Below, one piece after another: positions 896 through 40,345 of a stretch of 40,625 nucleotides of DNA. The DNA lies in UHGV virus genome UHGV-1366629. One strand, given 5' to 3'. Position 1 is the stretch's first letter. Every line of letters starts with the position of its first letter. A program made the translations under genes and the position numbers. The notes beneath the pieces were generated by a model. That model had not been told where the DNA came from. It made no database searches and saw nothing but the letters and a program-made list of their open reading frames with translations. This stretch comes from a virus.

Positions 896-906
896 ATTAT
901 AGCATA
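896..906 (-). promoter_or_regulatory. extended -10 promoter element TATGCTATAAT (minus strand) upstream of capsid gene
   Basis: rc of attatagcata; same TGnTATAAT family as other late-strand sites; no clear -35. Confidence 0.4.
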
Positions 907-931
907 CCCAAAGGGTAAAAAGCAAATTCGC

Positions 932-1600
932 TTAATACCCTTTGAAAATGTTTGCTAACATGTTAATACGAGTGTTGTTCTCAGCGGCAATTTGTGTTGA
1001 TTCCTCAGCCACTTGTTCAACTGATTTTTTAGGCTCGTCAGTTGGTTCTTTTTGTTCGTCAGGTTCGTCCTCTTTGTCAGGAACGTCCGCTACAATCTCA
1101 TCAATAAGACCATACTCTAACGCTTGCTTAGCACTAATCAATTTATCAGCCTCTAATAATTCAATAAGTTCCTCTTCAGTACCTTTGAATTTTTTAAGGT
1201 ATAAATCGATAATAGTTTGGTCAATAGTCTTTAACTCAGCGGCTTGTTTTTCTAAGTCCTCACTATGACCATATGCCATAGTTGCCGACTTATGAAATAG
1301 AAACATGCTCGTTTCTTGAGCTTTGACTGTATCCATTGCAAACAATGGGAGGGTTGCGGCACTTGCGCAAATACCCTGAACGAGAGCCGTTTTTTGCCCT
1401 TTATGTTCTTTTAATAGACCAAGCATAGCCATACCCTCAAAAACGTCCCCACCTTTTGAATTGATGTGAAGTTCAATATCGTCATTTTCATGCCCCTCAA
1501 GATTAGCTTTCATTCCATTATAGGTTGCGCTTAGAATTTCGTCAGTCCAAAATTCCATAATTTGACCGACATAACCAGTTAAATAAATAATATGTGCCAT
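932..1600 (-). CDS. prohead protease, ClpP/S14 family, with acidic C-terminal tail (possible scaffold function)
   Basis: ClpP-like core (GQIMEF...INSKGGDVFEGMAMLGLL...GICASAATL) between portal and capsid; ATGA start/stop overlap with portal. Confidence 0.85.
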   Translation of the reverse strand: MAHIIYLTGYVGQIMEFWTDEILSATYNGMKANLEGHENDDIELHINSKGGDVFEGMAMLGLLKEHKGQKTALVQGICASAATLPLFAMDTVKAQETSMFLFHKSATMAYGHSEDLEKQAAELKTIDQTIIDLYLKKFKGTEEELIELLEADKLISAKQALEYGLIDEIVADVPDKEDEPDEQKEPTDEPKKSVEQVAEESTQIAAENNTRINMLANIFKGY

Positions 1601-2850: not shown

Positions 2851-2900
2851 ATTATACCACAATAAGCATATAAAAAACAAGTGAGCTAATAAAAGCCCAC
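2851..2900 (-). terminator. imperfect hairpin plus T6 (minus strand) after terL, followed by extended -10 TGTGGTATAAT upstream of portal
   Basis: minus strand reads caggtgggc-ttttatta-gctcacttg TTTTTT atatgcttaTTGTGGTATAATtg...aaggagg ATG(portal). Confidence 0.45.
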
Positions 2901-2903
2901 CTG

Positions 2904-5797: not shown

Positions 5798-5940
5798 GGT
5801 AAACCTCCTTTGATTTTAATTAACGTGTAACTATTACTGTATGTTGTGTTTTGCGTGGTCTGGTATTCTATATGTTGTGGTCGCATTTTTTAATTTACGA
5901 AAGTTTTTTAGTTTTAGCTCAAAATCGTTCGTAATTCTGT

Positions 5941-6015
5941 GAAGAAAGCTTGGGGGGCGGTTCATTTGGCTTGGCGGGTGGTCGAAATTTTTGATAGGCG
6001 GGGGGAGTCGGGGCT
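5941..6015. other. GC-rich island (G-runs on plus strand) in an otherwise AT-rich 830-bp non-coding region; candidate cos / packaging initiation site
   Basis: aagcttGGGGGGCGGttcatttggcttGGCGGGTGGtcgaaatttttgataGGCGGGGGGagtCGGGGctg; sits between helicase and HNH-terS-terL, the usual cos position. Confidence 0.3.
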
Positions 6016-6170
6016 GAAATAAAATTTTACTTTTTGAAAATAATTTTTTTAAATTTTGAAATAAAAGTTTGCTACTTTTTTTATTTTTTATTTTATATAA
6101 ATTTTTATATATTGGAAATTTTTTATAAATATTTTTATTTTAATTTTTTATTTTAATATAACAATGAAGT
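6016..6170. repeat. AT-rich tract with phased T/A runs (intrinsically bent DNA candidate)
   Basis: repeated tttttatttt / aattttt motifs at roughly 10-11 bp phasing. Confidence 0.4.
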
Positions 6171-6228
6171 TACCTACCACCATACCCACCTACCCCTACC
6201 CTACCCCCTACCTATAGTACCCCACCTC
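6171..6228. repeat. C-rich (plus) / G-rich (minus) tract 1: GGGTA-type repeats with a canonical G-quadruplex motif on the minus strand
   Basis: plus cccacctacccctaccctaccccctacc; minus GGGGGTAGGGTAGGGGTAGGTGGG has four G3+ tracts with loops of 5 nt or less. Confidence 0.6.
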
Positions 6229-6476
6229 TTTAGTAGAGTAAGTTAGATACAATATGTTGTGTTTTATTCAGATAAGTTTACCAATAATTATTTAATGTTA
6301 TTTCTAATAAAATAACTGAGTGAATTAATATATAAAAGTTTATATAAATAAGTGGCTACCTATTGTCTAATATATTGTAGCTCATTCATATGTTAATTGT
6401 TGGATATTATTTAACTATTTGTTTATATTTAAATTATAACATAGGTTAGTTGTTAATGCAAACACCAGTCGTATTG

Positions 6477-6632
6477 CCCCCTATCCTACCCCATGTATCC
6501 CCATTACTTACCCCACCTATTCCCCTAACATACCCCCTACAAAATAAGAGGCATACCCTAAAGGATACACCCCTATGTTTAGATACACCACCCCACTAGT
6601 AGTATACCCATTACTCTATGTTACATATCCCC
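6477..6632. repeat. C-rich (plus) / G-rich (minus) tract 2: nine C4+ runs, the first six phased at ~11 bp, ending at the helicase stop codon
   Basis: C4-5 runs at 6477, 6489, 6499, 6511, 6522, 6533, 6570, 6591, 6629; motif (A/T)CCCC(A/T). Confidence 0.6.
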
Positions 6633-8884: not shown

Positions 8885-9085
8885 ATGAAATTATATTTAA
8901 TTGAAAAAGTACCATTAAAGAAAGGTACAGAAATTATTTTGGCCGATGTGGTACAAGACTTAAAAGGAGCATGTACAATGCTTGGTGTTTCTGAGCGTAC
9001 ATTTTACAGACATTTAGAAAAAGGCGAGTCAAAAGGCTACAAAATAAGTAATATGAAACCACAAGTCATTAGAGTATATAAATAG
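8885..9085 (+). CDS. small helix-turn-helix DNA-binding protein (excisionase/AlpA-like HTH), first gene of early operon
   Basis: 66 aa; LKGACTMLGVSERTFYRHLEKG HTH signature; RBS gaaaggaag. Confidence 0.55.
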   Translation: MKLYLIEKVPLKKGTEIILADVVQDLKGACTMLGVSERTFYRHLEKGESKGYKISNMKPQVIRVYK

Positions 9086-11247: not shown

Positions 11248-11712
11248 ATGAAATTCACAACACAACGAGAAATTAGAGAAACAGCGGGACAACGCAAGAA
11301 ACACGTCACTCAATTCACACCAGTAGAAAGACACGACTTAGAAAAAGTAACTCGCAAAGTGTTACGAAAATGGTTGAAACATGGTATTGCCACAACGAAA
11401 CACTTGAAAAATAAAGTAATTAATCACGAAACACAATTCTCATATCGCTTAACAATGGAAACAATGCTAAACCATGACATTATTGAGTATAATGTGACTG
11501 GCTCAGATAGACGGGTTGTATTACGTTCCAAAACACCTCATTCAATTATGTCAGTTGGTAATTTAGGGGTGCAATGTATTGTAATTTCTATAAACAGTGG
11601 AAAAGTCGTTACTAGTTACATTAATTTATTAGAGGACGACCATAAAACACTAGATACTAGACGATATGACAAACATTTAAAAATTAATTTAGAAAATGTG
11701 TTGACAAGATAA
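11248..11712 (+). CDS. hypothetical protein, basic
   Basis: 154 aa ORF with RBS agagaggaag. Confidence 0.6.
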   Translation: MKFTTQREIRETAGQRKKHVTQFTPVERHDLEKVTRKVLRKWLKHGIATTKHLKNKVINHETQFSYRLTMETMLNHDIIEYNVTGSDRRVVLRSKTPHSIMSVGNLGVQCIVISINSGKVVTSYINLLEDDHKTLDTRRYDKHLKINLENVLTR

Positions 11713-11729
11713 AAAAAGTTTGATATAGT
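11701..11729 (+). promoter_or_regulatory. sigma-A promoter TTGACA-17-TATAGT with conserved leader TAATTCATAAGATAAAGGGAGG
   Basis: ttgacaagataaaaaaagtttgatatagt. Confidence 0.65.
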
Positions 11730-11760
11730 TAATTCATAAGATAAAGGGAGGAATTAAACA

Positions 11761-13418: not shown

Positions 13419-14192
13419 ATGGAAACGTATATCAAATTAGTAAAGGTGTTCCCCGTAGATATTGCAAATGGTCACTATGTAAATGACGTGTTGAAAGTAG
13501 TTCGTTACTTTAGCGCTGGTTGTGTTGCTGAAGATAAGCAAGGGCGAGAAACACCGTTTAAAGCTGAGCAGTATGAAACATTGCCAAAATATAAGATAGT
13601 AGAGGATAAAAACGATAATTACGCTTTGCATGGTTTTGCAATTGGGGCGATTGTTCATTTACTTGACACCAATACCGTTAACCCAAAATATAAGAGAATG
13701 TTCGGTAAGGGCGTTCATGGTCAATTAACCACTCAGTTAGTACATGAAAATTTATTAGAACCAGTACACGACCAAAAGGAGGAAAAACAAGTGAAATATA
13801 CGGAAAAAGACATTAAAGAGGGTATGCAATTACGTTGTACTGATGGAGGTCGCTCTTGTTTTTGGGAAGTTGGTAAAATTTATACAGTAACTAAACTCAA
13901 TAATGGTCAAATTGGTTTTCACGGCGATGAAATGTTGGGTAGAACCAGCCGCAATGCAAAAGATATTGCTAACTATTTAAACGGCGAATTGAACGCAAAA
14001 TTTGAACTGGTAGGTCAAACGAATGACCTTAAAACGAAAGTAGAGGCTAAAATTGAAGAGTTACGCAAAGAAAAATACCATTTACATGATAAACGAGAAC
14101 GATTATTAAAACAAGAAACTGCTTTGAATGATAAAATTATTCGATTGAGTAAGGCTTTAGCGGCGGTTGACGTTTTACAAGAATTTGAATAA
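13419..14192 (+). CDS. paralog 1 of tandem family: barrel module (IKEGMQLRCTDGG...W.VGKIY.V) + C-terminal coiled coil
   Basis: 257 aa; module shared with 14260..15351 and degenerate copy in 15428..16258. Confidence 0.6.
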   Translation: METYIKLVKVFPVDIANGHYVNDVLKVVRYFSAGCVAEDKQGRETPFKAEQYETLPKYKIVEDKNDNYALHGFAIGAIVHLLDTNTVNPKYKRMFGKGVHGQLTTQLVHENLLEPVHDQKEEKQVKYTEKDIKEGMQLRCTDGGRSCFWEVGKIYTVTKLNNGQIGFHGDEMLGRTSRNAKDIANYLNGELNAKFELVGQTNDLKTKVEAKIEELRKEKYHLHDKRERLLKQETALNDKIIRLSKALAAVDVLQEFE

Positions 14193-14198
14193 AAAGTG

Positions 14199-14227
14199 TT
14201 GACAAAATAAAAAGGTTGCGGTATATT
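14199..14227 (+). promoter_or_regulatory. sigma-A promoter TTGACA-17-TATATT, duplicate of 13358 promoter/leader
   Basis: ttgacaaaataaaaaggttgcggtatatt + aaatatatcaaatatagaaagagg. Confidence 0.6.
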
Positions 14228-14259
14228 AAATATATCAAATATAGAAAGAGGTAATGAAC

Positions 14260-15351
14260 ATGAAAGAGTATAAGAACAAAGAAATTAAAGAGGGTATGCA
14301 ATTACGATGTACAGATAACGGCGGTTGGGAGCATTGGACTGTAGGCAAGGTTTATATCGTATTTAAAAACATGATGGGACTCTTGGTTATTCAGTCAGAC
14401 ACAGGCGGACAACGCAATGTAACTGATATTGTTCAATATTTAAATGGTGTAGCAAAAGCAAAATTTGAATTATTAAATGAGGAGGATAATAAAAATATGT
14501 ATACAGTAGGGGACTTAGTTAAGATTAATGACGATTTACGGGCTGGGTGTGAATATAACGTTTATTGTAACGATGACATGGAAACATACCGAGGTAAAAA
14601 AGCCGTGATTGTTGATGTTCATACTGATAAAACTCTATGGGAGAATGAAAGAAAAATTTACAAATTGCAAGATATGAATGGTGAAACTATCGAGTGGTCA
14701 TTTACTGATGATATGTTTAAAATCACTACAAACACTAACGAACCACCATTTAAGGTAGGCGATACAGTACGAGTATTAAACAATGCCACTTTAGCAAGTA
14801 AGGCCGATGGTAATTTTTATAGAACTGGTGATATTGATGTTGTCGGATATGTTGAATGTTACAAAAATTCAAAAGGCGGTCGTATTCGATTAGGTACACA
14901 TGGTTCAGCTAACTGGATACATTTTGACATGATTGAATTAGTTGAGGAAGCGCCAGAAAAACTAGGATACTTCAAATGTACAGCTGGTTCAATGTTTTGG
15001 TCTAAAGGAAAAATTTACCCCGTTTCATATGACGAAAACGCAAAATTATACACAATTGCGGACGATGACGGCGATGAACGAGCAGAGCCAACACTTGAGT
15101 TATTAATTCAATACGCCACTCATAAAATTAACGCCACTATGATTTATATGAATGACACCAAAGAGGATAAAGAGGCTAATAAAGACATTAATAAAGTAAG
15201 TGACTTGTTACAGACTAAAATTGATGAATTAACAACCCAAGCCGAACACCTATTTAAAAAACGTGACCGATTAGATGAACACGCTAAAAATTTAAATGCA
15301 AAAGCTCGCCGATTGGAAGAAGTACGAGATGAATTGAATAAATTTAAATAA
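14260..15351 (+). CDS. paralog 2: two copies of barrel module plus KOW/SH3-like VGDxV(K/R)(I/V) repeats and C-terminal coiled coil
   Basis: start at 2nd ATG (14260) on RBS spacing; KEIKEGMQLRCTDNGGWEHWTVGKVY; second copy FKCTAGSMFWSKGKIYPV. Confidence 0.6.
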   Translation: MKEYKNKEIKEGMQLRCTDNGGWEHWTVGKVYIVFKNMMGLLVIQSDTGGQRNVTDIVQYLNGVAKAKFELLNEEDNKNMYTVGDLVKINDDLRAGCEYNVYCNDDMETYRGKKAVIVDVHTDKTLWENERKIYKLQDMNGETIEWSFTDDMFKITTNTNEPPFKVGDTVRVLNNATLASKADGNFYRTGDIDVVGYVECYKNSKGGRIRLGTHGSANWIHFDMIELVEEAPEKLGYFKCTAGSMFWSKGKIYPVSYDENAKLYTIADDDGDERAEPTLELLIQYATHKINATMIYMNDTKEDKEANKDINKVSDLLQTKIDELTTQAEHLFKKRDRLDEHAKNLNAKARRLEEVRDELNKFK

Positions 15352-15356
15352 AATGC

Positions 15357-15385
15357 TTGACAACTTGTGGGCTAGGTGATATACT
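15357..15385 (+). promoter_or_regulatory. sigma-A promoter TTGACA-17-TATACT
   Basis: ttgacaacttgtgggctaggtgatatact. Confidence 0.65.
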
Positions 15386-15427
15386 TAGTCCATGAGTTAA
15401 ATATAAAAAGAAAGAGGGAATTTAGAA

Positions 15428-16258
15428 ATGAGTAAAAAATTAGAAGTAGGTCAATATGTACGAGTAAAACAATTAACACCTGAGGAGCAATATGAGGGTA
15501 TTTATGTAACTCAGCACATGGCTAATTTAAGCGGAACAATTCAAAAAATTACTAACTTTATGGCGAGTCACACTGGTATTGCTATTGATGGTAGAATTTC
15601 GTTAACTAATGGTTGCGGCTATAATTGGTCTAAAGAAATGTTTACCTTAATTGAGGACTATGCCGACTTACAAGAGTTTGACGTTATTGAATGCCTTGAC
15701 AATGACCAAGATTCACGTTGGTTCACAATTGAGAAAGAATATACTGTTTTAGAAAATAACTATGGTCAATTATGTATTTATGATGATGAGGGCGACCACT
15801 GGGAATTAGAGGACGTTTTCCAAGACGATTATACTTTTAAATTTAAAGAAGTTTCTGTTCCCGTTGTAAATAATTCAGCTATTAAGTTATTAGAGGCAAA
15901 ACTTGAAAATAAACGTAGTGAGTTGCACATTAAAAAACAAGAGGTAAGTCGTATGAATGATATTATCACTGATTTAGAGGACGATATTTCAAAACAAAGA
16001 GTAAAACTTACCCAACTAAAACAAGATAAAGCGGAAAAGATGACTACAGGAGCGTTAGAGGTAGGCGAAAAATTCAACATGTACCGAGGAAACAACGAGG
16101 CTAAATATATGGTTATTAGTATGCCAAGCGGTGACTTTGGAATTTATAACCTACGTAGTCGAAAAGTGTTAGATATGAGTGTTGAAACATATGAAGAAGT
16201 TAAAAACTATTTTACTGAGTTATACCAAGATGATAAAATTAAAATTATCAAACAATAA
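15428..16258 (+). CDS. paralog 3 (divergent): N-terminal KOW/SH3-like VGQYVRV, barrel module, central coiled coil
   Basis: 276 aa; ECLDNDQDSRWFTIEKEYTV resembles the C..D...W...GK.Y.V module. Confidence 0.55.
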   Translation: MSKKLEVGQYVRVKQLTPEEQYEGIYVTQHMANLSGTIQKITNFMASHTGIAIDGRISLTNGCGYNWSKEMFTLIEDYADLQEFDVIECLDNDQDSRWFTIEKEYTVLENNYGQLCIYDDEGDHWELEDVFQDDYTFKFKEVSVPVVNNSAIKLLEAKLENKRSELHIKKQEVSRMNDIITDLEDDISKQRVKLTQLKQDKAEKMTTGALEVGEKFNMYRGNNEAKYMVISMPSGDFGIYNLRSRKVLDMSVETYEEVKNYFTELYQDDKIKIIKQ

Positions 16259-18383: not shown

Positions 18384-18641
18384 ATGGAATTAATTGTAAA
18401 TCAAAAGCATTACACGAATAAAGGTATTCATGAACCTATTAAAGTTATGATGGATACATTCACAGGCGAGGAGTATCGCGGTTATTTAAACGGTAACGTA
18501 TTAAAATATATGTTAAGATATAAAGATAAAAACGGACTTGAGGACTTGAAAAAAGCTCAAACTTACCTAACATGGTTAATTGAAGCATATGAAGAACTTG
18601 AAAAAGAACCGATGGCAGCACCTACTGATTTTGACTTTTAA
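18384..18641 (+). CDS. hypothetical protein
   Basis: 85 aa. Confidence 0.6.
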   Translation: MELIVNQKHYTNKGIHEPIKVMMDTFTGEEYRGYLNGNVLKYMLRYKDKNGLEDLKKAQTYLTWLIEAYEELEKEPMAAPTDFDF

Positions 18642-18660
18642 TAGTTAAGTATGGTATAAT
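18631..18660 (+). promoter_or_regulatory. promoter TTGACT-18-TGGTATAAT driving the ORF-free region
   Basis: ttgacttttaatagttaagtatggtataat. Confidence 0.55.
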
Positions 18661-19080
18661 ATAAGTATAAGAACCCATGACACCTATTAACAATGTGCAA
18701 ATCGTGGGGCAAAAATATTAGCGGGCTTGGGTTGTAGCTTGCTCCCGCCTAGGGGCTTAAATAAGTAAAAAGAATACTAGGAGTAGCAACTACTATGCTG
18801 AACAGTAGCGCAACCAATAAACTATAGCTTGAACTATAGTATAAAGAAGAGCTACATTGTGGCTTGTCGTTAGTGTGAGAGCGACGAAGAAAACAAAACT
18901 CACATAATATAATAGATTAAGACTTAGAAAAGTTTATTGTCCCCATTGGACAAACTCAGGTTCTAAGTCTATTTATTTGTTTATAAAATAACATATGTTA
19001 TTAAAAGGCATTAAAAAAGCCCCTGACTAGAGGGGCAACAGAAAGAAGAAAGGAAGAAAGAAGAAAGGAAAGAAGTATCA
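18661..19080 (+). ncRNA. candidate non-coding RNA / replication-origin region: no ORF above 15 codons on either strand, multiple hairpins
   Basis: hairpins 18721-18748, 18790-18808, 18821-18840, nested 18920-18970; 16-bp palindrome 18987-19002; purine tract 19040-19075. Confidence 0.35.
19013..19036 (-). terminator. intrinsic terminator on minus strand (GCCCCT-gactag-AGGGGC followed by T6 on minus)
   Basis: plus aaaaaaGCCCCTgactagAGGGGC. Confidence 0.45.
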
Positions 19081-19192
19081 CAAAATGGAGGAAGTAGTTA
19101 ATTAACGCTAATGAAAGCGCTTACTTAACTATAATATTATTGTACCATATTCAGACCCCAAAAGTCAAATTCAAAAAAGTTTATAAAAAGTG

Positions 19193-19221
19193 TTGACAAG
19201 TTGGTTATTTCATGATATACT
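19193..19221 (+). promoter_or_regulatory. sigma-A promoter TTGACA-17-TATACT with leader TTAATTCATAAGTTAAGAGGAGG
   Basis: ttgacaagttggttatttcatgatatact. Confidence 0.65.
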
Positions 19222-19252
19222 TAATTCATAAGTTAAGAGGAGGAAACAAATT

Positions 19253-29463: not shown

Positions 29464-29797
29464 CGCCTTTCCATTCTAAATTTTTGACTTTCTCGAAAAG
29501 GTCTATTAAAACACCAGTGCCGCCCAACGCTAAATAGCTGGAATATAAAGCGTGTAAGTTTCGGTACTCTTCAGGTGTAATATAACCCCTTTCAATATAG
29601 TCATTAGCTAGTGTATAAATTGAGTTATGCAACAAGCCTTTAACTGCTTCAGTCATTGCGAGATTGTTTCCTTTGACTCTCTTCATAAAGTTAGTTACAT
29701 ATTTGACAATCAAAATAAGGCCACCCACTAAAGTAACCCCGAATATGTCAGATATGAAAGCGCTTACATTTAACAAGTTTTTAAACAAATTTCTCAC
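29447..29797 (-). CDS. second holin-like / lysis-associated membrane protein
   Basis: 116 aa; N-terminal TM SAFISDIFGVTLVGGLILIV; directly upstream of holin. Confidence 0.4.
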   Translation of the reverse strand: MRNLFKNLLNVSAFISDIFGVTLVGGLILIVKYVTNFMKRVKGNNLAMTEAVKGLLHNSIYTLANDYIERGYITPEEYRNLHALYSSYLALGGTGVLIDLFEKVKNLEWKGGDDHD

Positions 29798-29816: not shown

Positions 29817-29854
29817 ATTATACCACAAAAAGAGGACTCATTACAAGCCCTCTT
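29817..29854 (-). terminator. late-strand cassette copy 1: terminator hairpin AGAGGGC-ttgtaatga-GTCCTCT + T5 immediately followed by extended -10 TGTGGTATAAT
   Basis: plus attataccacaaaaagaggactcattacaagccctctt; near-identical copies at 33703-33739 and 40050-40088. Confidence 0.6.
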
Positions 29855-29887: not shown

Positions 29888-31540
29888 TTAAGACCAGTCA
29901 CCACCGAACTCTATTGAGCCGTCAGGGTTCTGAGTCATGATTTTAACTTCCCCAGCCCCTAAAGCTCCCTCAGTTGGAAAAGGGTCTTCAGTGAAATAAG
30001 TTGCTGTTAAATAATGGTTTCCTGTATGGTTAGTCGTCCATCGGATATATCCCGTTTGTTCAATAAGGCCTTGATAATTTCTTGCCGCATTGGTGGCGAA
30101 AGCCCATTGACTGGTAGCTATAGTCGTGTTGAAAAATGGGGCATTTGCTTCTTGCCTAAACCCAACTGGAATCTGATAAATCTGGTCCATTGTTCCAGTA
30201 CTACCATGTAAAAACTTAGTTACGTCACTAATGTTCATTCTACCGTTAAGCGTTACACGGTTACCTACTCGCTTGAAGTCAAAACGACACTCAGGAGCGT
30301 TTACCCCGTCCCAACCAGCGCCATAGTTAGGTAAGCCTTTTTCTTTATAAACATAAATTTTATTATGCTGTTGAAGTGTGGTGATGTTACTTGTGTTAGT
30401 ACCGATATTCATTGTGTTAGTTGCTATCCTACGCCCTTGGTCTGAAACAGTATCATCAATACGAACAATACTAGCCTCATTAGCTACCTCTACCCAAGGT
30501 GTTGAACTAACCCCATTAGTATTTCTATAGGCCGTTCTAGCAAATGTTGGGTTATTTAGTTTAATCTCTTGATAGCGATAGGCATTAGTTGGTTGACCTA
30601 CTGGCATACTTACAAATAACCCAGCATTTCTAAAGTTAATAGGTAATGAATTTTGGTCGGTGTAAGTAATGGCCGTTGCTCGTGGGACATAGAAATAACC
30701 AGTTAACTTAGCTAAGTCATTAAATGAAGTAATATCACTTGGAACGGGTAACGGTTGACCATCATCAGCGGTTAATTTGAATTTTTGAATAGTGTCAGGA
30801 ATTTCACCCTTTTTCATGAAAGTAGAATCTGCTTCAGGTTTAGTATAAAAATTACCATTCTCAAAGTCAGCCAAAGCTTGGGCAACTCGTGACTCATAAC
30901 CTGAAACTAATGTTTCCAAGTCTTGTTGAGCTTTAGCAATCTTAGCCTCTAACTCAGCAATTTCAGTGTTTAACCGTGCCTCTAATGCTGTGATTTTACT
31001 ACTCAAGTTAGCCTCAGCTGTATTAATATTATTTCTCAATGTATCTAACTCAGCGTTAGCTTGTGCCAATTTATCAGTTAATTGTTGTAAGTAACTTTCA
31101 GCTGTAGCCTCCATTCTGTCAATAATTTCTTGTAATTCATCAACGTAGTGAGCTACATCTTTATCCGTAACATTGGCCTCAGGTAATACAAACCAATCTA
31201 AGTTGACGGTACTTGTTTGCGCCGTACTTGCTTTTTTAACCTCTAAATAAACAACTTTAAAAGCCCCTGAAGCACTGTTCCAATCTTTAGTTAACACTAC
31301 TTTAGCACTGGTTATTGAGTTGCTAACTTGGATAGTTCCATCTAATTCGATATACTTATTGTCATTGGTGATACCTTTCAATTTAACTCTATCAACAGTA
31401 GGACTTAACAAATAGTTAGCTCCACCCGCAAAAAGTCTAAATATAATAGTTTCACCAAATTCACCCTGTCTAGTAACAACACCCGAAGTACTGTACTCTT
31501 GTTTTACTAAGTCTAATGTAAATGTTCTCTCTAATGCCAT
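29888..31540 (-). CDS. receptor-binding / baseplate protein: BppU-like N-terminal domain, central coiled coil, C-terminal head domain
   Basis: MALERTFTLDLVKQEY...RQGEFGETIIFRLFAGGANY (BppU_N-like); heptad-rich 140-215. Confidence 0.6.
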   Translation of the reverse strand: MALERTFTLDLVKQEYSTSGVVTRQGEFGETIIFRLFAGGANYLLSPTVDRVKLKGITNDNKYIELDGTIQVSNSITSAKVVLTKDWNSASGAFKVVYLEVKKASTAQTSTVNLDWFVLPEANVTDKDVAHYVDELQEIIDRMEATAESYLQQLTDKLAQANAELDTLRNNINTAEANLSSKITALEARLNTEIAELEAKIAKAQQDLETLVSGYESRVAQALADFENGNFYTKPEADSTFMKKGEIPDTIQKFKLTADDGQPLPVPSDITSFNDLAKLTGYFYVPRATAITYTDQNSLPINFRNAGLFVSMPVGQPTNAYRYQEIKLNNPTFARTAYRNTNGVSSTPWVEVANEASIVRIDDTVSDQGRRIATNTMNIGTNTSNITTLQQHNKIYVYKEKGLPNYGAGWDGVNAPECRFDFKRVGNRVTLNGRMNISDVTKFLHGSTGTMDQIYQIPVGFRQEANAPFFNTTIATSQWAFATNAARNYQGLIEQTGYIRWTTNHTGNHYLTATYFTEDPFPTEGALGAGEVKIMTQNPDGSIEFGGDWS

Positions 31541-31553
31541 ATTTATAAGCCTC

Positions 31554-32831
31554 CTAATTAATTTTATCTATAATCGTTCTTAATGAACTACCAATTGTCA
31601 TTTTATCGTAGGTGTCCGTGAGGATATTATACGTATAACCTGAAACTCGTCCTGTAATTGTTCTATTTAATTCCTTAACATGAACCTTAACGCTGTCCCC
31701 TAACTGTAAAGCCAATAAGTGAGAAAGCTCTTGTAACCCTTGGTCACCCCTGATACTGTCAAAATCAAATTTAATCGTTTCAACTGGCATAGACCGATTT
31801 TTGTTAGCGGCATTCCAAATATTAGCCTGTTTAATCAAGTTATTTCTAACATGTGCCTTACCGTCTTTAATAGGGTCACCTAAACTGCTCTCACTCTCAC
31901 CACCCCAGTCTTTAATAATAACTGAACCGATACGACTTTCTTTATCTGCTATTTTTGAAGTTAGTTCATGTAATTTTTGGCGGTAGTTACTAGCTGTGTT
32001 ATCAGTATCTTTTATATAAATAGTGTTAGTTTGTTGAACACCCTCAACCCCTGAATCGGTATTATAGGTAAAAATATGAACAACCCCATTAAGTAAATTA
32101 GTACTGTCTATTGTGTACTCTATTCCACTTACTTGAACACTTGTACTAAGCACCATATTTAAGTTAGGCCGCCCTAGTGCTGTATGATGGGTTACCGTTG
32201 GGCTGTTTGGTATTGAGGTAGTTTTGTCAAATTCACCACCGAACATATCAGCCAATGAGTTTTCTGAGCCTCCAATTAGTTCTAGCATGGTTTTACCATA
32301 TGGCTTCACTTGTAAATAGTTAACCCCAGCCGTGTTTATCATATTGGCCTTTAGTAACTCTCCACTAACATAAACGTTAGGGTATCTGTCCTTAGGTGAT
32401 ACATGAAAGGCATAATCTGGTAATTGATACATTCTCAATCGTGAACCACCATCGGCCGTAGCGTGTACTTCATTTATTGCATATACTCCATTTCTAACCG
32501 TATTAAATTCAGGTTCAGCTGTGAAAGTAATTGTTTTTGCTGTGGTATTATAACTTACATAATTAATTATAAACGTACCATCAAGTGAAGACACCTCATT
32601 ATATCTAACTCGAATTAAGTTTTCCGCTTGAATTAATGCCATGTTATTATCATTCATTTCACAAACTACAGTAGGAATAGGGTCACCAAAGTTAGTTACT
32701 GTAATGACCGCTGAATAAATTCCGTTAATACGGCCTAGGTTTATTTTTCTCATATTAATGGGTGCATTTGTTTGCTCAATTGGAAACTCATAAGCACTCA
32801 CCGCAATAGTTCTTTTACGTGTAATATACAT
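31554..32831 (-). CDS. tail-associated lysin / baseplate hub (Tal) N-terminal-domain-type protein
   Basis: 425 aa immediately after Dit; assigned by position and size. Confidence 0.55.
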   Translation of the reverse strand: MYITRKRTIAVSAYEFPIEQTNAPINMRKINLGRINGIYSAVITVTNFGDPIPTVVCEMNDNNMALIQAENLIRVRYNEVSSLDGTFIINYVSYNTTAKTITFTAEPEFNTVRNGVYAINEVHATADGGSRLRMYQLPDYAFHVSPKDRYPNVYVSGELLKANMINTAGVNYLQVKPYGKTMLELIGGSENSLADMFGGEFDKTTSIPNSPTVTHHTALGRPNLNMVLSTSVQVSGIEYTIDSTNLLNGVVHIFTYNTDSGVEGVQQTNTIYIKDTDNTASNYRQKLHELTSKIADKESRIGSVIIKDWGGESESSLGDPIKDGKAHVRNNLIKQANIWNAANKNRSMPVETIKFDFDSIRGDQGLQELSHLLALQLGDSVKVHVKELNRTITGRVSGYTYNILTDTYDKMTIGSSLRTIIDKIN

Positions 32832-33673
32832 TAATATACTAACCTCCTGTCAATATCCATTTGCAACTTATAGTTAATATCATGTTGACCATTTAAAGCG
32901 ACATTAACCCGATATTCACCTACGTCAAGTCGTGGATAGTCATTTATTTGTAAAATGTCCCATGCTTGAGTAAATTCATTTTGAGGTATGTTATTCACAT
33001 AAGCAACACACTTCTCACCGTCAATAATAAGAGGTTGGTCTTTTCTAAAATCTAACTGCCAACCTTGCACTAAACCCTCCCAGCGGTCACGGGTATTATC
33101 TAGCTTATAAATATTAATTGATATACTAGTTGGATATACTGGGGAACTGTTTACCTCTTGAGTTAATTTGATAATTGGAAAACATGGATAGTTACCATCA
33201 TTAACAATATAACCCGTTGTGGTGTTCTTGTCAAATGTCATTAGTACATGGTCATCAATTTTATAAGGGAAAGGGTTACATGTAAAGGTTGCTGTGAAAA
33301 TACCATGCTCTAGTATTTCGCTTGTAGTGTCCCCTATTACCACGTTTTTAACTTCATATTGAACAGGCAAATCATCATTAAATCGAATTGTTTTAGCGTT
33401 AAATAATGCTTTTCTCATCGAATAAAAATTCTTTCTAAAACTGTTTAAAAAAGGGTCGTCAACATTCAAATAGTTAAATTTAACATCTATTTCAATATCA
33501 GACCAACCTACGTCCATTCTAGTAGTCCCTCGTTCTGAATACTTATTCTCAGTATATACTTGTTGTCTTTTTGGTGAGGGAATTTCAGGTCGTTCCATCA
33601 AACACAACCCGTATTGTTCCATATCTACATTGTTAACTAATATGTGAGGGCTGTCATTAAAAAACAAATTCAT
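32831..33673 (-). CDS. distal tail protein (Dit)
   Basis: 280 aa immediately downstream of tape measure. Confidence 0.65.
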   Translation of the reverse strand: MNLFFNDSPHILVNNVDMEQYGLCLMERPEIPSPKRQQVYTENKYSERGTTRMDVGWSDIEIDVKFNYLNVDDPFLNSFRKNFYSMRKALFNAKTIRFNDDLPVQYEVKNVVIGDTTSEILEHGIFTATFTCNPFPYKIDDHVLMTFDKNTTTGYIVNDGNYPCFPIIKLTQEVNSSPVYPTSISINIYKLDNTRDRWEGLVQGWQLDFRKDQPLIIDGEKCVAYVNNIPQNEFTQAWDILQINDYPRLDVGEYRVNVALNGQHDINYKLQMDIDRRLVY

Positions 33674-33702: not shown

Positions 33703-33739
33703 ATTATACCACAAAAAGAGGACTCATTACAAGCCCTCT
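33703..33739 (-). terminator. late-strand cassette copy 2 (terminator after TMP + TGTGGTATAAT promoter for Dit)
   Basis: plus attataccacaaaaagaggactcattacaagccctct. Confidence 0.6.
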
Positions 33740-33750
33740 AATAAACTTTT

Positions 33751-36700
33751 TTATTTCCATTGGTTGTCATTACGATATTGTTTTAACTGTGCAACTGAAA
33801 CCGCCTCAGCTAATTGCTGTACTCGTGCTGAACTGTCTACATCGCCCTCAATGTTAATCGTGATTGGTGCTTGTTGGGTATTATTGATAATTCCCGCTAC
33901 ACCATTACTTGAAGCCATATCTCTAGTTAGGTTACTGTTTAGAGTTGCTCCCATGTTCATATCGGTTTCTAAAGTACCAGCTAGCTCATTTTGAAGTTGA
34001 CCCGCCATAGCTCCCACGGTTTCCTTAACATTCTCAAAGCCCTTTTTCAAACCTCTATCTAAACCGAACATTAAAGCCATACCATTCTCAATTAAGACAG
34101 TTTTATCATACGGAACTGGCCCTTTATGGTCGGCTATCCAGTCAGCAATACCACCAACCCACTCTTTCACATTTTGCCATTGAGCAAGCATACCGTCCCA
34201 AAGACCACGGATAAGAGCGATACCATTATTCCACAACACGTCACCAAAAGCCAAGCGACCCAAGGCACTAACAACTTCCCACAATGCACGTCGCACTCTT
34301 TCACGGTTGTTATTAATTCCGTCAGCTAAGCCCTCAAGTAATGCAACAGCCGCCTCCCACATATCATTAGCAAAACCAACCACAAACTCAACTATTTTTC
34401 TAACCAAGTTTCTAGCTGAAGTACGTAAGCGATATAGGTTGTTAGCGATACCATCAATTAAAGCCGCCAATAAATTAATAGCTGAACCAACTAATCTATC
34501 AGCATTACGAGCTAAACCATCAACTAAAGTCACTACGATAGTAACCGCAACGTCAATAATTTCAGGCATTCGTTTTATCATAGCATTGGCAAAATTAATA
34601 ATTAAATTAACTGCCGCATTGACAATATCACCCATACGACTAGCAATAGTATTCACCCAAGTTACAATCAAATCAACCGCCGCATTGACAATTCTAGGCA
34701 AGTTATCTTTCAAACCTTTCAAGAATGCCACAATTACATTAGTACCCGCCGCAATTAATTTAGGTAAGTTATTACTAATTGAAACACTTAACGTTGTGAC
34801 AAACTCAGTACCTTTTTCCACTAACTTAGGAACTGCCTTACTCAATTCTGCTAAAATCATAACCACAATTTGAGTAAATGATTGAATAAGAACTGGAACT
34901 ACTGTCATGATACCCTCAGTCAATGCTTTGATGATTTTAACACCACTTTCAGCAATTGCGGGTACTAACTCAATTATAACCGTTGTAATAATATTTAGCA
35001 AGCCTTTTATCGCCTCTATCCATAATGGCATAGACTGAGCTAGACCTTGAACTAAACCAACTACAATCTGAGCCGCTCCCTCGAATAAGTAAGGTAAAAA
35101 TTCAGCAATGGCTGTTGTAATACCTAATAACATATTACCTACACCTTGACCAACATTGGTACTTGCTTCACCTACTGAAGTGGTAAGGTTCATAAAGCCC
35201 TCAGCGATTTTCTTGATACCGTTTAACACAGAACCCTCACCTAAGAATTTTGCTAAAGTCAAGAAAGCGTTTATAAGTAGACCAATTGGCCCAAATAAGG
35301 CACTAATAGCGAACTTAAAGGCAGTAAATGCAATGTTTCCAGCACCTAAATTATCAACCAATTTAGATATACCACTTGCACCAGTTTCGTTACCTCTAAA
35401 GAAGTCACCAATTGCCCCCGCAACATCTCGAACTTTTTTAGCAAAATCAAGACCGAATACCTCGCTCAAGTCTTGAAAGGCTTCAGTGTACTTTTGAGCA
35501 TTACCAATACCGAAAACTAGTTGCTTAGTTATCTCAGCCGTGCTTTTTACTGCTGTTTTAAAGTCTGTGAAAAGACCAGCTACTTGGGTCATTTTAACCC
35601 ACCATTCATGTGGGAACATTTTAACAAATTGTTCATGTAACTTGGCTACTTCTTCACCGTATTTACCTTGTAACAATAAACCGAATGCCTTGACTAATGC
35701 CCCAATGGCCTTAACTGAATTTTGCATTCCTTTTGGTAGTTTTTCAACAATTTTATCCCAGTTTTTAAACACTACTATAACCGCCGCAACTGCCGCCGCA
35801 ATACCTACGAATGCCCCAATAGTTGCAACCCCAGCAATACCTAAAGCAGTGAATAAGGCACTAGCCGCCGCCCATGCTCCCATTAATGCAGTACCACCAG
35901 CAATCAACGCACCAGTTAGAACAATAATTTCTTTTACTGGCTGAGGTAGTCCGTTAAACTTATCTGTAATGGTTTTAATGGCGTTAGCCGCTGTTTTTAA
36001 GAATGAAATAAATAAAGGCTGAATAACGTCACCAATTGCCCTTGAAAAGTCCTCTTGTGCTTGGTTTAAGTTACCCATTACGTTTTCAAGTCCATCACCC
36101 TCACGAGCCGCCTGACCTAATGCACCTGATAACTTATTGCCGTCCTCAACCATTTGTAATAATGTTAACTGCTTTTGGTCTTCAGCTAAGTCTTTAAATG
36201 ATTTCCCATATAATTTGTTAGCCGCCGCATTACGTGTTGTTTCAGTTGAAGAAATACCAAGTGCCGCATCGTTTTCATAGTTACCTTTCAAATAACTCTT
36301 TAATGATTCAGTAGTGTCCTCTAGTGAACGGTCATAGAAAGCCGCACTATCAGCCGCCGCCATTGTTGCACGACTAGCCAAGTCTAAAGAGCCAGCTGTA
36401 TCAAAGCCCGCTGTTTTGGCAAAGGCCGCAATACTTGTCATAGCTGGTTTTAATCGGTTAGGTAAAATAGATGTTTCTTTACCAATGGAATTGATGGCCT
36501 TGTTAGCTTCACCCTCCATACTTCCCCATGTTTGAGTCCATTGAGAGTCTAAAGCCGTCCATTTAGCTGAGGCCTCAATTGCCCCTTTACCAAAACTAAT
36601 CAACTTATCAGAAACACCGCTCATTATATCGCCCACGGCTTGCATTCGTTCGATTTTTGCCGCTCTATTTAATTCGTCTAAACCATCGCTAGCCGCCCCT

Positions 36701-36843
36701 GTTTTACTTGGTAATTTACCTAGCTTGTCGCCGACTTGTTCAATACCTTTAATAGCCCCTGAGCTATCCGTTACAACTCGAATACCGATAGTACTTGTTG
36801 TATTTGCCATGTTTTCACACTCCTTATAGCTTACTATATTCAT
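33751..36843 (-). CDS. tail tape measure protein
   Basis: 1030 aa, Ala/Gly/Leu-rich with internal hydrophobic segments; between chaperone and Dit. Confidence 0.9.
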   Translation of the reverse strand: MNIVSYKECENMANTTSTIGIRVVTDSSGAIKGIEQVGDKLGKLPSKTGAASDGLDELNRAAKIERMQAVGDIMSGVSDKLISFGKGAIEASAKWTALDSQWTQTWGSMEGEANKAINSIGKETSILPNRLKPAMTSIAAFAKTAGFDTAGSLDLASRATMAAADSAAFYDRSLEDTTESLKSYLKGNYENDAALGISSTETTRNAAANKLYGKSFKDLAEDQKQLTLLQMVEDGNKLSGALGQAAREGDGLENVMGNLNQAQEDFSRAIGDVIQPLFISFLKTAANAIKTITDKFNGLPQPVKEIIVLTGALIAGGTALMGAWAAASALFTALGIAGVATIGAFVGIAAAVAAVIVVFKNWDKIVEKLPKGMQNSVKAIGALVKAFGLLLQGKYGEEVAKLHEQFVKMFPHEWWVKMTQVAGLFTDFKTAVKSTAEITKQLVFGIGNAQKYTEAFQDLSEVFGLDFAKKVRDVAGAIGDFFRGNETGASGISKLVDNLGAGNIAFTAFKFAISALFGPIGLLINAFLTLAKFLGEGSVLNGIKKIAEGFMNLTTSVGEASTNVGQGVGNMLLGITTAIAEFLPYLFEGAAQIVVGLVQGLAQSMPLWIEAIKGLLNIITTVIIELVPAIAESGVKIIKALTEGIMTVVPVLIQSFTQIVVMILAELSKAVPKLVEKGTEFVTTLSVSISNNLPKLIAAGTNVIVAFLKGLKDNLPRIVNAAVDLIVTWVNTIASRMGDIVNAAVNLIINFANAMIKRMPEIIDVAVTIVVTLVDGLARNADRLVGSAINLLAALIDGIANNLYRLRTSARNLVRKIVEFVVGFANDMWEAAVALLEGLADGINNNRERVRRALWEVVSALGRLAFGDVLWNNGIALIRGLWDGMLAQWQNVKEWVGGIADWIADHKGPVPYDKTVLIENGMALMFGLDRGLKKGFENVKETVGAMAGQLQNELAGTLETDMNMGATLNSNLTRDMASSNGVAGIINNTQQAPITINIEGDVDSSARVQQLAEAVSVAQLKQYRNDNQWK

Positions 36844-36852
36844 TATACCATA
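36842..36852 (-). promoter_or_regulatory. extended -10 TATGGTATAAT (minus strand) upstream of TMP
   Basis: rc of attataccata; preceded on minus by short hairpin + T6. Confidence 0.4.
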
Positions 36853-36906
36853 AATGTAAGCGCTTTCACAACTACAGCAAAAAAGAGCCTATCTAAAAGA
36901 CAAGCT

Positions 36907-37493
36907 CTAATGTTTACTATTTTTCTTTTCAATTTTCTCACGTATTTTATTTTCGTAACTTGTATATGCTCCGTGAGCTAAAGCAATATAAATTATTTCA
37001 GTTGCGGTTACATCAGGGTTTAATAACCAAGTGTCAGGGACACCGTTATAATCTCGCATTTGAGCTATCCAGCCTATAACAGTGTCTGACTCAGGTACTT
37101 CGAACTTAATACCACCTAGGCCTTTTTTCCCTTGGCCTTTCCCAATTTAGAAACAGCTTGAATATATTTATCAGCCGCTTTCGGGTCTAACATAGCTGTA
37201 TAAATTTGACCAGCTTCAGCCAAGTCGAATAGTAAGCCGTCCTCTTCGTCAAAGAACTCCTCAAACGTTAAATAGTCTTTCATGTTAGCCTGACGATAAG
37301 CCACATAAACAGCCGCCGCCATGTTTTTAAATTCAATTGCTTGTGTGTCCCCTTTAGCGTTAACAGCGAATGAGAAAACTTCATTTACTTCAGGAAAATC
37401 ACGAGCGATAATCATACATTTCATAGGGTTGTAACCTAATTGAATTGAAACTTCCTCACCGTTCAATAATTGTAATTTTGTAATTTTTGCCAT
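36907..37493 (-). CDS. tail assembly chaperone -1 frameshift fusion product (gpGT-like)
   Basis: slippery G GGA AAA AAG at comp(37120..37129); -1 frame stays open for 70 codons to TAG at comp(36907..36909). Confidence 0.6.
37116..37493 (-). CDS. tail assembly chaperone (gpG-like)
   Basis: 125 aa, between major tail protein and TMP; ends KLGKAKGKKA over slippery GGGAAAAAAG. Confidence 0.75.
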   Translation of the reverse strand: MAKITKLQLLNGEEVSIQLGYNPMKCMIIARDFPEVNEVFSFAVNAKGDTQAIEFKNMAAAVYVAYRQANMKDYLTFEEFFDEEDGLLFDLAEAGQIYTAMLDPKAADKYIQAVSKLGKAKGKKA

Positions 37494-38442: not shown

Positions 38443-38453
38443 ATTATACCACA
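38443..38453 (-). promoter_or_regulatory. extended -10 TGTGGTATAAT (minus strand) upstream of major tail protein
   Basis: rc of attataccaca; adjacent perfect palindrome gaaagcgctttc. Confidence 0.45.
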
Positions 38454-38473
38454 AGTGAAAGCGCTTTCGCAAG

Positions 38474-39352: not shown

Positions 39353-39725
39353 TTAGGTTACCTCCTTTTTCGTCCGTGGTTACTAGGTATAAATATAGTC
39401 GGTCTTGATAACGGTCAGTTTTTTCAATGTCGTATACTGTATTATTGTAAAGCACCAGTAATTGACTCTCTGCCTCACTTTCGATTTTTGCACTATATGG
39501 AATATCTACCTTTTTATTAATCTGAGTAATAACGGCATTACCTAATAGAGTCAAATCACCTGACGTTAATGAAGCACGCTTAAAAGGCACTCGTTTATAA
39601 GTAGGTGTGAACTTTTTCCCAATTAGTCGCCGATTCTCGTTGTAAATGGCCTTTTGTTCACCTAACTGTAAATACCCATCGTTATAAGCCTTGTGCATAT
39701 CAATTTTAGAGTTAGGTAGTGGCAT
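39342..39725 (-). CDS. head closure (stopper) protein, SPP1 gp16-like
   Basis: 127 aa; YDIEKTDRYQDRLYLYLV C-terminal motif typical of head closure family. Confidence 0.55.
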   Translation of the reverse strand: MPLPNSKIDMHKAYNDGYLQLGEQKAIYNENRRLIGKKFTPTYKRVPFKRASLTSGDLTLLGNAVITQINKKVDIPYSAKIESEAESQLLVLYNNTVYDIEKTDRYQDRLYLYLVTTDEKGGNLNGE

Positions 39726-40020
39726 TGTCCTCCGCCTCCTTTTCCAAAGCTAACGTAATGATAAACTTATTTACTAATTGTTGATAGTTGTCCTCAAATA
39801 GGTCTAAAGCGTTGTTATATTGATACCTAGCCCGCTGAGTGATTAAATCGAACGCCAAAGAGTCCTCAGCTACATTAATATCTTGGTCATCTTTAAAATG
39901 AATAGCCCATTTGTAAGCGCTTTTAACATAGCGAGAAATACGACCATCGTCATCACTCCAGAAAATACCAGATTCATCTTTTACAGCACTTACTAGACTG
40001 GCTAACGTTTCATCATTCAT
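39712..40020 (-). CDS. head-tail connector/adaptor protein (gp6/gp15-like)
   Basis: 102 aa; ...ALDLFEDNYQQLVNKFIITLAL; first of the head-tail joining genes after capsid. Confidence 0.55.
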   Translation of the reverse strand: MNDETLASLVSAVKDESGIFWSDDDGRISRYVKSAYKWAIHFKDDQDINVAEDSLAFDLITQRARYQYNNALDLFEDNYQQLVNKFIITLALEKEAEDNATT

Positions 40021-40049: not shown

Positions 40050-40088
40050 ATTATAGCATAAAAAGAGGACTCATTACAAGCCCTCTTT
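40050..40088 (-). terminator. late-strand cassette copy 3 (terminator + TATGCTATAAT) between small post-capsid ORF and connector gene
   Basis: plus attatagcataaaaagaggactcattacaagccctcttt. Confidence 0.6.
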
Positions 40089-40093
40089 CTGTG

Positions 40094-40297
40094 TTATGCT
40101 TTTAGTTGGAATTTTGCGTCAGATTCAGTTTTTGTATAAACGTCCGCCGCATTTGCTTTAGCCGCCAATTCTGCTTTAGTAGCTAAATTCGCAACTGCCG
40201 CATCAATTAATGCTTGTACTGCCGTAGCATCTAACCCACCAGTTGGTAAGTCGTCAGTTGATACTACGAAAGATTTTCCCATGTTAGGTCTTGACAT
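40094..40297 (-). CDS. hypothetical small Ala-rich protein immediately downstream of capsid gene
   Basis: 67 aa; RBS agggagg. Confidence 0.5.
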   Translation of the reverse strand: MSRPNMGKSFVVSTDDLPTGGLDATAVQALIDAAVANLATKAELAAKANAADVYTKTESDAKFQLKA

Positions 40298-40328
40298 ATT
40301 GTAAACCTCCCTGTATAATTAAAATAAA

Positions 40329-40345
40329 GAGGGGTCAAGCCCCTC
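40329..40345 (-). terminator. hairpin GAGGGG-cttga-CCCCTC followed by T-rich tract on minus strand directly after capsid stop (attenuator-type)
   Basis: plus gaggggtcaagcccctc; minus downstream tttatttt then RBS of next gene. Confidence 0.5.

Follow-up and report, generated by a model that had tools for sequence, protein, structure and literature searches.

Short intergenic sequences that recur almost unchanged within one phage genome raise two questions, namely, what they do between gene blocks and why their copies are alike. Both were addressed for a 37-nt repeat in the window, that is, the whole analysed stretch of 40,625 nucleotides. The window comprises almost the whole 40.6-kb genome of a lytic Enterococcus siphophage and shares 90-95% identity over nearly its full length with the Enterococcus cecorum (E. 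cecorum) phage vB_CECAV_A40 (A40). Packaging, head, tail and lysis genes are located on the minus strand, hereafter the structural strand; these genes abut or overlap inside blocks, gaps occur between blocks only, and the repeat copies (cassettes) lie in the gaps.

The sequence ATTATACCACAAAAAGAGGACTCATTACAAGCCCTCT was found at 29817-29853 and 33703-33739 with 0 mismatches each, and a third copy at 40050-40086 contained 2 mismatches, both in the -16/-10 box (TATGCTATAAT vs TGTGGTATAAT); the chance expectation for the 37-mer was 0.00 (100 shuffles). The initial annotation was thus right in reporting a near-identical cassette in three copies, and its start positions stood; the ends that it placed at 29854 and 40088 were off by 1-2 nt. 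On the minus strand, every copy reads AGAGGGCTTGTAATGAGTCCTCT, then TTTT, then (T)GTGGTATAAT. The copies are as follows:

29817-29853, minus strand: cassette C, from the fibre/RBP gene (29888-31540) to the lysis block (116-aa ORF, holin, endolysin); -10 TATAAT at 29817-22, TGTG at 29823-27, T-run at 29827-30, hairpin at 29831-53 and -35-like TTGTAA at 29841-46.
33703-33739, minus strand: cassette B, from the tape-measure gene (33751-36843) to Dit (32831-33673); -10 at 33703-08, TGTG at 33709-13, T-run at 33713-16, hairpin at 33717-39 and TTGTAA at 33727-32.
40050-40086, minus strand: cassette A, from a 67-aa gene (40094-40297) that follows the major capsid gene to the connector block (39712-40020 onward).

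Cassette A shares its hairpin with B and C and retains a TATGCTATAAT box of its own. A distant fourth member was detected by the repeat finder at 2851-2887.

The gene after copy B encodes Dit (phrog_33), and that after copy A encodes a 102-aa protein (phrog_749) which occupies the head-tail connector position, both as originally assigned. The gene after copy C, which had been described as holin-like, encodes a 116-aa protein of unknown function (phrog_4105) that is not recognisable as a holin; the lysis block opens with this gene and continues with a Phage_holin_1 holin and then an amidase endolysin. A strong Shine-Dalgarno sequence lies approximately 15 nt past the cassette end, and the start codon lies at 29-31 nt; the earlier distance of approximately 30 nt to the ribosome-binding site is thus that to the start codon.

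Each cassette consists, on the structural strand, of a 23-nt hairpin, a T-run and a TRTGnTATAAT box, positioned approximately 30 nt ahead of the next start codon. Folding energies of the hairpin as sense RNA range from -11.9 to -15.9 kcal/mol (z = -3.7 to -5.4 vs shuffles), and only approximately 1-2% of random 41-nt windows of the genome fold equally well. The antisense RNA folds more weakly (-6.2 to -8.2 kcal/mol) because three of the hairpin pairs are G·U. All three copies have 4-5 T after the stem, and 7-34 nt separate the start of the hairpin from the stop codon of the upstream minus-strand gene. One further A-U pair reaches 29854 in cassette C, and the stem of cassette A is lengthened by A-U pairs to approximately 40089. 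A G+C-rich stem-loop with an adjacent 3' U-tract, in sense orientation right after a stop codon, is also the layout of intrinsic (Rho-independent) terminators, and the cassette hairpin can probably be counted among them, as a partial terminator. The differences from this class are the short U-run (4-5 U), the three G·U pairs, and a loop and 3' arm that carry promoter information. On account of the first two of these features, termination at the cassettes may be weak; the U-tract runs for 4-5 U and then continues as G/A-U-G. A simple terminator scan flagged copies B and C and not copy A, and no match was obtained in the window at Rfam gathering thresholds.

The promoter half overlaps the terminator half. 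The -35-like TTGTAA is situated in the hairpin loop, 18 bp from TATAAT; it matches TTGACA at 4/6 positions, and the spacer is 18, not 17 bp. The last T of the T-run is also the first base of the TRTGnTATAAT box, which reads TGTGGTATAAT in two copies and TATGCTATAAT in one. The cassettes thereby contain TATAAT with TG one base upstream (TRTG) and TTGnnn at 17±1 bp, as defined for sigma-A extended -10 promoters. Such extended -10 or '-16 region' (TRTG) promoters of Gram-positive bacteria were reportedly described by Voskuil and Chambliss in 1998. The combination of TRTGnTATAAT with a weak -35 is shared with many Firmicutes promoters; here, however, a terminator hairpin furnishes both the spacer and the -35, and the spacer is always 18 bp. 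In the window, TRTGnTATAAT was found 20 times against 6.5 expected, and a simple promoter scan returned 44 hits against 41 expected.

Distant relatives were collected via the major tail protein, and identity to the window protein was used as the distance: 84-89% for L002/L003, 70% for L005, approximately 70% for L011/L023, approximately 71% over 61% of the protein for L012-14, approximately 46-47% for L006/L007/L009/L031 and 45% for L032. A40 carries the same three cassettes, with a single A>G change that leaves a G·U pair. Hairpin, T-run and TRTGnTATAAT were present at the tape-measure (TMP)-to-Dit and fibre-to-lysis junctions of L002/L003, L005, L011/L023, L012-14, L007/L009 and L032, and the decoration-to-connector junction showed the same design in most of these relatives. 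Ten related phage lineages share the design at shared gene junctions, and the more distant Efquatrovirus phiSHEF5 has it at TMP-to-Dit, with TTTACA in the loop.

Seventeen distinct related cassettes were aligned without gaps and anchored on TATAAT, a sample that is small for covariation. Across them, 86.5% of stem cells were paired vs 69.9% in shuffles, a value reached by 0/500 shuffles, and slid controls gave 50-69%. Both sides had changed in 7/10 stem pairs, with variants such as GAGGGC/GUCCUC, GCCCC/GGGGC, GGGAAG/CUUCCC and ACGUCGC/GUGGCGU. Judged from this alignment, the hairpin is kept as a structure, not as a sequence. The invariant columns were the TT of the -35 (G in 90%), the T-run, TG and TATAAT, and the spacer was 18 bp in every related cassette; the extended -10 box recognised in the initial annotation is borne out by this fixed TTG, 18-bp spacer, TG and TATAAT across diverged cassettes. 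L005 contains three unrelated hairpins in one genome. L032 (IMGVR_UViG_3300011896_000002) contains five fused modules, at 2403, 4873, 8112, 8365 and 13944, in which the hairpins are unrelated, TTTTTTGTGCTATAATG is identical and the gaaaggaagtg leader is similar. The homogenised part in L032 is the promoter half, not the hairpin.

The full cassette was found only in A40 among 50,697 GenBank phages, the exact hairpin core had no match in IMG/VR, and a looser loop-plus-promoter pattern matched only relatives in IMG/VR and no Enterococcus site in GTDB genomes. Partial matches in streptococcal and lactococcal sequences were antisense to local genes and were discarded as chance matches to the promoter half. 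The 8 GTDB sites of the looser pattern (Ruminococcus/Clostridia MAGs, Flavobacterium) were likewise set aside as ordinary promoters or an unrelated terminator.

We consider, with a probability of roughly 0.75, that each copy is a fused terminator-promoter between structural or lysis blocks and that the three copies are alike by recent copying. Polymerase arriving from upstream would transcribe AGAGGGCUUGUAAUGAGUCCUCU, and the RNA would fold into a 9-13-bp hairpin followed by the U-run, thereby ending or attenuating the upstream transcript and furnishing it with a stable 3' end. Read as double-stranded DNA, these bases would form a host sigma-A-type promoter: the loop would provide the -35-like TTGTAA, the 3' stem arm and T-run the 18-bp spacer, and the last T of the T-run would open the TRTG '-16' element ahead of a perfect TATAAT. 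Transcription would restart 6-8 nt past TATAAT and yield a leader of approximately 23 nt with a strong Shine-Dalgarno sequence. Each downstream block (connector, baseplate/host-recognition and lysis genes) could thus have its own transcription level, and its promoter would be shielded from occlusion by upstream transcription. The terminate-then-reinitiate role proposed in the initial annotation is well supported at the level of sequence and comparison and fits every computational test run, namely, covariation, G·U strand specificity, placement and promoter columns. We infer termination and initiation, their efficiencies and the insulation effect, whereas the anatomy, conserved pairing, strand specificity, promoter invariance and shared junctions can be read from the sequences themselves.

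The identity of the copies is a separate matter. Hairpin identity was 0.70 within genomes vs 0.54 between genomes (permutation p = 0.002), an excess that was marginal without the window phage (p = 0.058); within-genome likeness was 100% in the window, 87% in L007/L009 and 65-70% in L011 and L012. Compared with their L003 counterparts, the window cassettes showed 83% (C), 70% (A) and 61% (B) identity. Junction A of L003 and L005 has its own common type, CGCTTGTAATGAGTG; this type has been lost from junction A of the window, and the junction-A TGCTATAAT box has been kept. On this comparison, the cassettes have long stood at the same fixed junctions and are not recent insertions. The best explanation of the pattern is that, in the window/A40 lineage, the fibre-to-lysis (C-type) version was recently copied to both other junctions. 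The C-type sequence would have overwritten the whole cassette at B and the hairpin only at A, before the window/A40 split, probably through short-patch gene conversion. Recent duplication, as previously suggested, is thus borne out in the sense of copying between cassettes already present at these junctions.

The same design was observed elsewhere on the structural strand. A hairpin of <= -10 kcal/mol occurred in the preceding 40 nt for 5/9 intergenic boxes on this strand and for 1/6 comparable boxes on the early strand; the five comprise the three cassettes and the TerL-to-portal and protease-to-capsid junctions. The additional elements are listed below:

2851-2901, minus strand: TerL-to-portal junction, with hairpin GGTGGGCTTTTATTAGCTCAC (2881-2901), TTGTTTTTT and TGTGGTATAAT (2851-2861).
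896-946, minus strand: protease-to-major capsid junction, with TATGCTATAAT after a nested -20 kcal/mol hairpin in which TTGCTT lies at -35.
36842-36908, minus strand: junction upstream of the tape-measure gene, with a separate terminator hairpin and T6 (36884-36908), then TTGTGA-18-TATGGTATAAT.
38443-38472, minus strand: major tail protein promoter, TTGCGA-18-TGTGGTATAAT, with palindrome GAAAGCGCTTTC in the spacer and without a hairpin terminator.
40329-40345, minus strand: terminator-only cassette relative after the major capsid gene, GAGGGGCTTGACCCCTC and a T-rich tail.

The TerL-to-portal element follows the cassette design with a different hairpin sequence, and the T-run in TTGTTTTTT itself holds the -35 hexamer. 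The protease-to-major capsid design is kept in relatives. The spacer of the tape-measure promoter holds the AAGCGCTT palindrome, and the terminator at 40329-40345 has TTGAC in its loop, without a good -10 box.

The palindrome GAAAGCGCTTTC (core AAGCGCTT) was noted at 38457-38468, 36856-36867, 29756-29767 and 19113-19124, that is, in the major-tail and tape-measure promoter spacers, approximately 50 nt past cassette C and at the 5' end of a candidate small RNA; 7 matches were found in the window vs 0.84 expected. It is kept at the same promoters in L003 and L012, is absent in L005 and may be an operator. Separately, a perfect 12/12 consensus TTGACA-17-TATAAT is present on the plus strand at 40291-40319, antisense to the structural genes and overlapping the 67-aa gene start and the capsid terminator; this could be either chance or an antisense promoter.

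The initial annotation also offered a protein or RNA recognition site as a reason for the exact conservation. In its RNA form, the hairpin would be read by a phage antiterminator, processing factor or RNA-binding regulator in the manner of lambda N/boxB, its identity would be kept by selection, and termination would be turned off late. The hairpins of lambdoid nut sites are alike within a phage and different between related phages. The cassettes share with nut/boxB a short RNA hairpin that is near-identical within the phage and differs between relatives, and hairpins in this group do generally resemble each other inside one genome and diverge from one genome to the next. Moreover, a 60-nt stretch comprising cassette B and its leader is 100% identical in A40, between diverged flanks. 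However, the hairpins, identical in the window, are unrelated within L005 (three) and within L032, where five stand on one identical promoter; each cassette has its own U-run, and no boxA-like element accompanies it. Conservation between the window and A40 was 99.1% for cassettes, 98.0% for other structural-strand intergenic DNA and 93.4% for coding DNA; unusual conservation of the cassettes was rejected on this basis, and replacement of the hairpin only at copy A fits recombination as well as selection. Comparison of approximately 35 early or small ORFs with PHROGs and Pfam revealed no sigma factor, antiterminator, N-, Q- or Alt/ArpU-like protein or late activator, and the sole regulator-like match was a sub-threshold HTH in a 66-aa ORF (8885-9085). 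A special recognition site is not needed because relatives use other hairpin sequences at the same junctions; with no candidate factor found among the ORFs compared, this part of the annotation is not supported, and we regard the RNA-recognition explanation as quite unlikely. The higher conservation of structural-strand intergenic DNA than of coding DNA (98.0% vs 93.4%) is an observation of its own.

The closest described analogue is the PeSL (promoter-early stem-loop) cassette of T4-like phages, a repeated stem-loop terminator with a sigma-70-type promoter (Arbiol et al. 2010, PMC2839356; Comeau et al. 2014, PMC4122927). Both elements are intergenic, combine a repeated stem-loop terminator/attenuator with a host-sigma promoter and the Shine-Dalgarno sequence of the next gene, and occur as several near-identical copies per genome that exchange sequence. 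However, PeSLs span approximately 100 bp and keep the stem-loop apart from an AT-rich UP region and -35/-10, whereas the present element has 37 bp and places the -35 in the loop; its U-run also serves as the promoter spacer. PeSLs serve early genes in hyperplastic regions around orphan genes (ORFans) of Gram-negative myoviruses and are tied to insertions/deletions and mini-circles, whereas the cassettes are found at fixed positions that separate essential structural and lysis blocks in a Gram-positive siphophage, and indels linked to them were not seen. In short, the composite, repeated intergenic terminator and promoter is present, and the approximately 100-bp element with its AT-rich UP region and consensus early promoter is not; neither ORFan flanks nor indel breakpoints were found, the positions being fixed in all relatives and the window/A40 breakpoints (30877, 33252) intragenic. 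The cassette works like a PeSL and is not a member of that family.

This likeness raises the possibility that the cassettes are mainly recombination substrates, with the 37-bp repeats around Dit-Tal-fibre acting as crossover points for module swaps. Cassettes B and C bracket exactly the adsorption module, which contains the sole strongly diverged window/A40 block (30877-33252: the Dit C-terminus, all of Tal and the fibre N-terminus, with 47% identity for Dit overall). The divergence of this block is likely a host-range swap. The copies have clearly exchanged sequence among themselves, and between L002 and L003 a small gene was replaced with the left breakpoint just past the terminator module. 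Nevertheless, the limits of the divergent block fall within Dit and the fibre gene, so the cassettes were rejected as window/A40 mosaic boundaries; their positions are fixed in all relatives without adjoining indels, and a direct-repeat crossover in one genome would delete essential genes. A primary role in recombination is accordingly judged a poor prospect.

A promoter with an operator was considered as well, in which the inverted repeat over the -35 would be a DNA site for a dimeric phage or host regulator (late activator or repressor). The repeat does overlap the -35 hexamer, three identical copies are expected of sites read by one protein, and the true palindrome GAAAGCGCTTTC in other structural-strand promoter spacers suggests that operator-type control seems present in this phage. 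Yet 3/10 pairs are G·T as DNA, so that pairing occurs in the sense RNA only and the antisense folds about half as well. The stems vary between relatives and between the junctions of L005 and L032 with pairing kept, every repeat has a stop codon before it and a T-run after it, and no regulator was recognised save the sub-threshold HTH protein. Conserved structure, strand-specific G·U pairs and a fixed promoter are what a fused module predicts and are hard to reconcile with an operator, which we consider very improbable. Least probable of all is that the hairpin is only a terminator or 3'-end stabiliser, with an incidental or very weak TATAAT and structural genes expressed mainly by read-through from far upstream: the terminator-only version on the same strand (40329-40345) and the wealth of chance promoters in AT-rich Firmicutes and phage intergenic DNA (44 found vs 41 expected) speak for it, but TRTGnTATAAT is in excess (20 vs 6.5), and TT(G), TG and TATAAT are invariant at 18-bp spacing while the hairpin varies, which is unexpected for an incidental box.

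The fused terminator-promoter also has a counterpart without a hairpin. The T7 class II terminators (CJ, VSV) double as extended-TGn promoters for E. coli RNA polymerase (Bao and Forster, bioRxiv 10.64898/2026.02.12.705533). The two designs place a terminator and an extended -10 type promoter in one short sequence; in T7, however, the phage polymerase terminates and the host polymerase initiates, whereas here the terminator is a hairpin and both functions are proposed to be read by the host polymerase. No earlier account of the fused design in enterococcal phages was found in the literature, in which genome papers provide bulk promoter and terminator predictions only. The cassettes are most likely a compact but fairly ordinary form of operon punctuation, and current understanding is not overturned. 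If confirmed, they would provide natural parts of 37 bp with which transcription in enterococci could be insulated and restarted, of use in engineering phages and Firmicutes. They also offer a testable account of how a group of Enterococcus phages assigns different expression levels to its head, tail, adsorption and lysis genes without a recognisable late regulator. The three identical copies indicate that cassettes can overwrite one another within a genome, which matters when identical intergenic phage repeats are read as signs of mobility or special recognition.

On the plus strand, early-promoter repeats of 75-85 nt were observed at 11684-11758, 11947, 13341, 14182, 19176, 19734 and 19871, with a perfect TTGACA, a 17-18-bp spacer, an imperfect -10 (TATAGT, TATACT, TATATT) and a conserved leader, CATAAGATAAAGGGAGG. 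This early type (perfect -35, imperfect -10) mirrors the structural-strand type, in which the -35 is weak and the extended -10 perfect; the contrast suggests two classes of promoter serving temporal control. The gp39 protein of Thermus phage P23-45 blocks -35-dependent initiation and suppresses termination at U-tracts. It is conceivable, though unlikely, that the fused modules, with a terminator guarding each structural-gene promoter, are the core of a temporal switch in which a small phage protein acting like gp39 blocks -35-dependent initiation and suppresses U-tract termination. Such a protein would shut off early genes and make the entire structural strand accessible in one step. The homogenised hairpins specific to each lineage would then serve as RNA or DNA targets of this protein; alternatively, they would be kept similar by gene conversion from one cassette to another, a process that could also transfer host-range modules.

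Several further non-coding features were recorded in the window. A candidate phage small RNA of approximately 115 nt lies on the minus strand at 19012-19149. It comprises a promoter, TATGGTACAAT (19139-19149), a 5' stem-loop with AAGCGCUU, an unstructured CU-rich tract of approximately 55 nt (CUUCCUCC...CUUUCUUCCUUUCUUCUUUCU) with an anti-Shine-Dalgarno-like look, and an intrinsic terminator, GCCCCUCUAGUCAGGGGC, followed by U6. Its MFE is -23.7 kcal/mol (z = -4.0), and its promoter is kept in A40. The surrounding 610 nt (18642-19252) contain no ORF > 36 aa. On the plus strand at 18630-18990, a TTGACT-17-TATGGTATAAT promoter would drive a candidate structured RNA of approximately 320 nt (z = -2.9). 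A sub-threshold Rfam match to abiF RNA (RF03085) was recorded at 18674-18709 (E = 0.05, 24.7 bits vs a gathering score of 37); if real, it could represent an anti-abortive-infection decoy RNA. An 830-nt AT-rich non-coding gap (5798-6631) between the helicase and HNH/terminase genes contains an inverted repeat (6092-6113 / 6327-6348, 95% complementary) and may be an origin or packaging region. Finally, three adjacent paralogous early genes occupy 13419-16258 on the plus strand (13419-14192, 14254-15351 and 15428-16258); all match phrog_3523, of unknown function, and have common internal DNA repeats.
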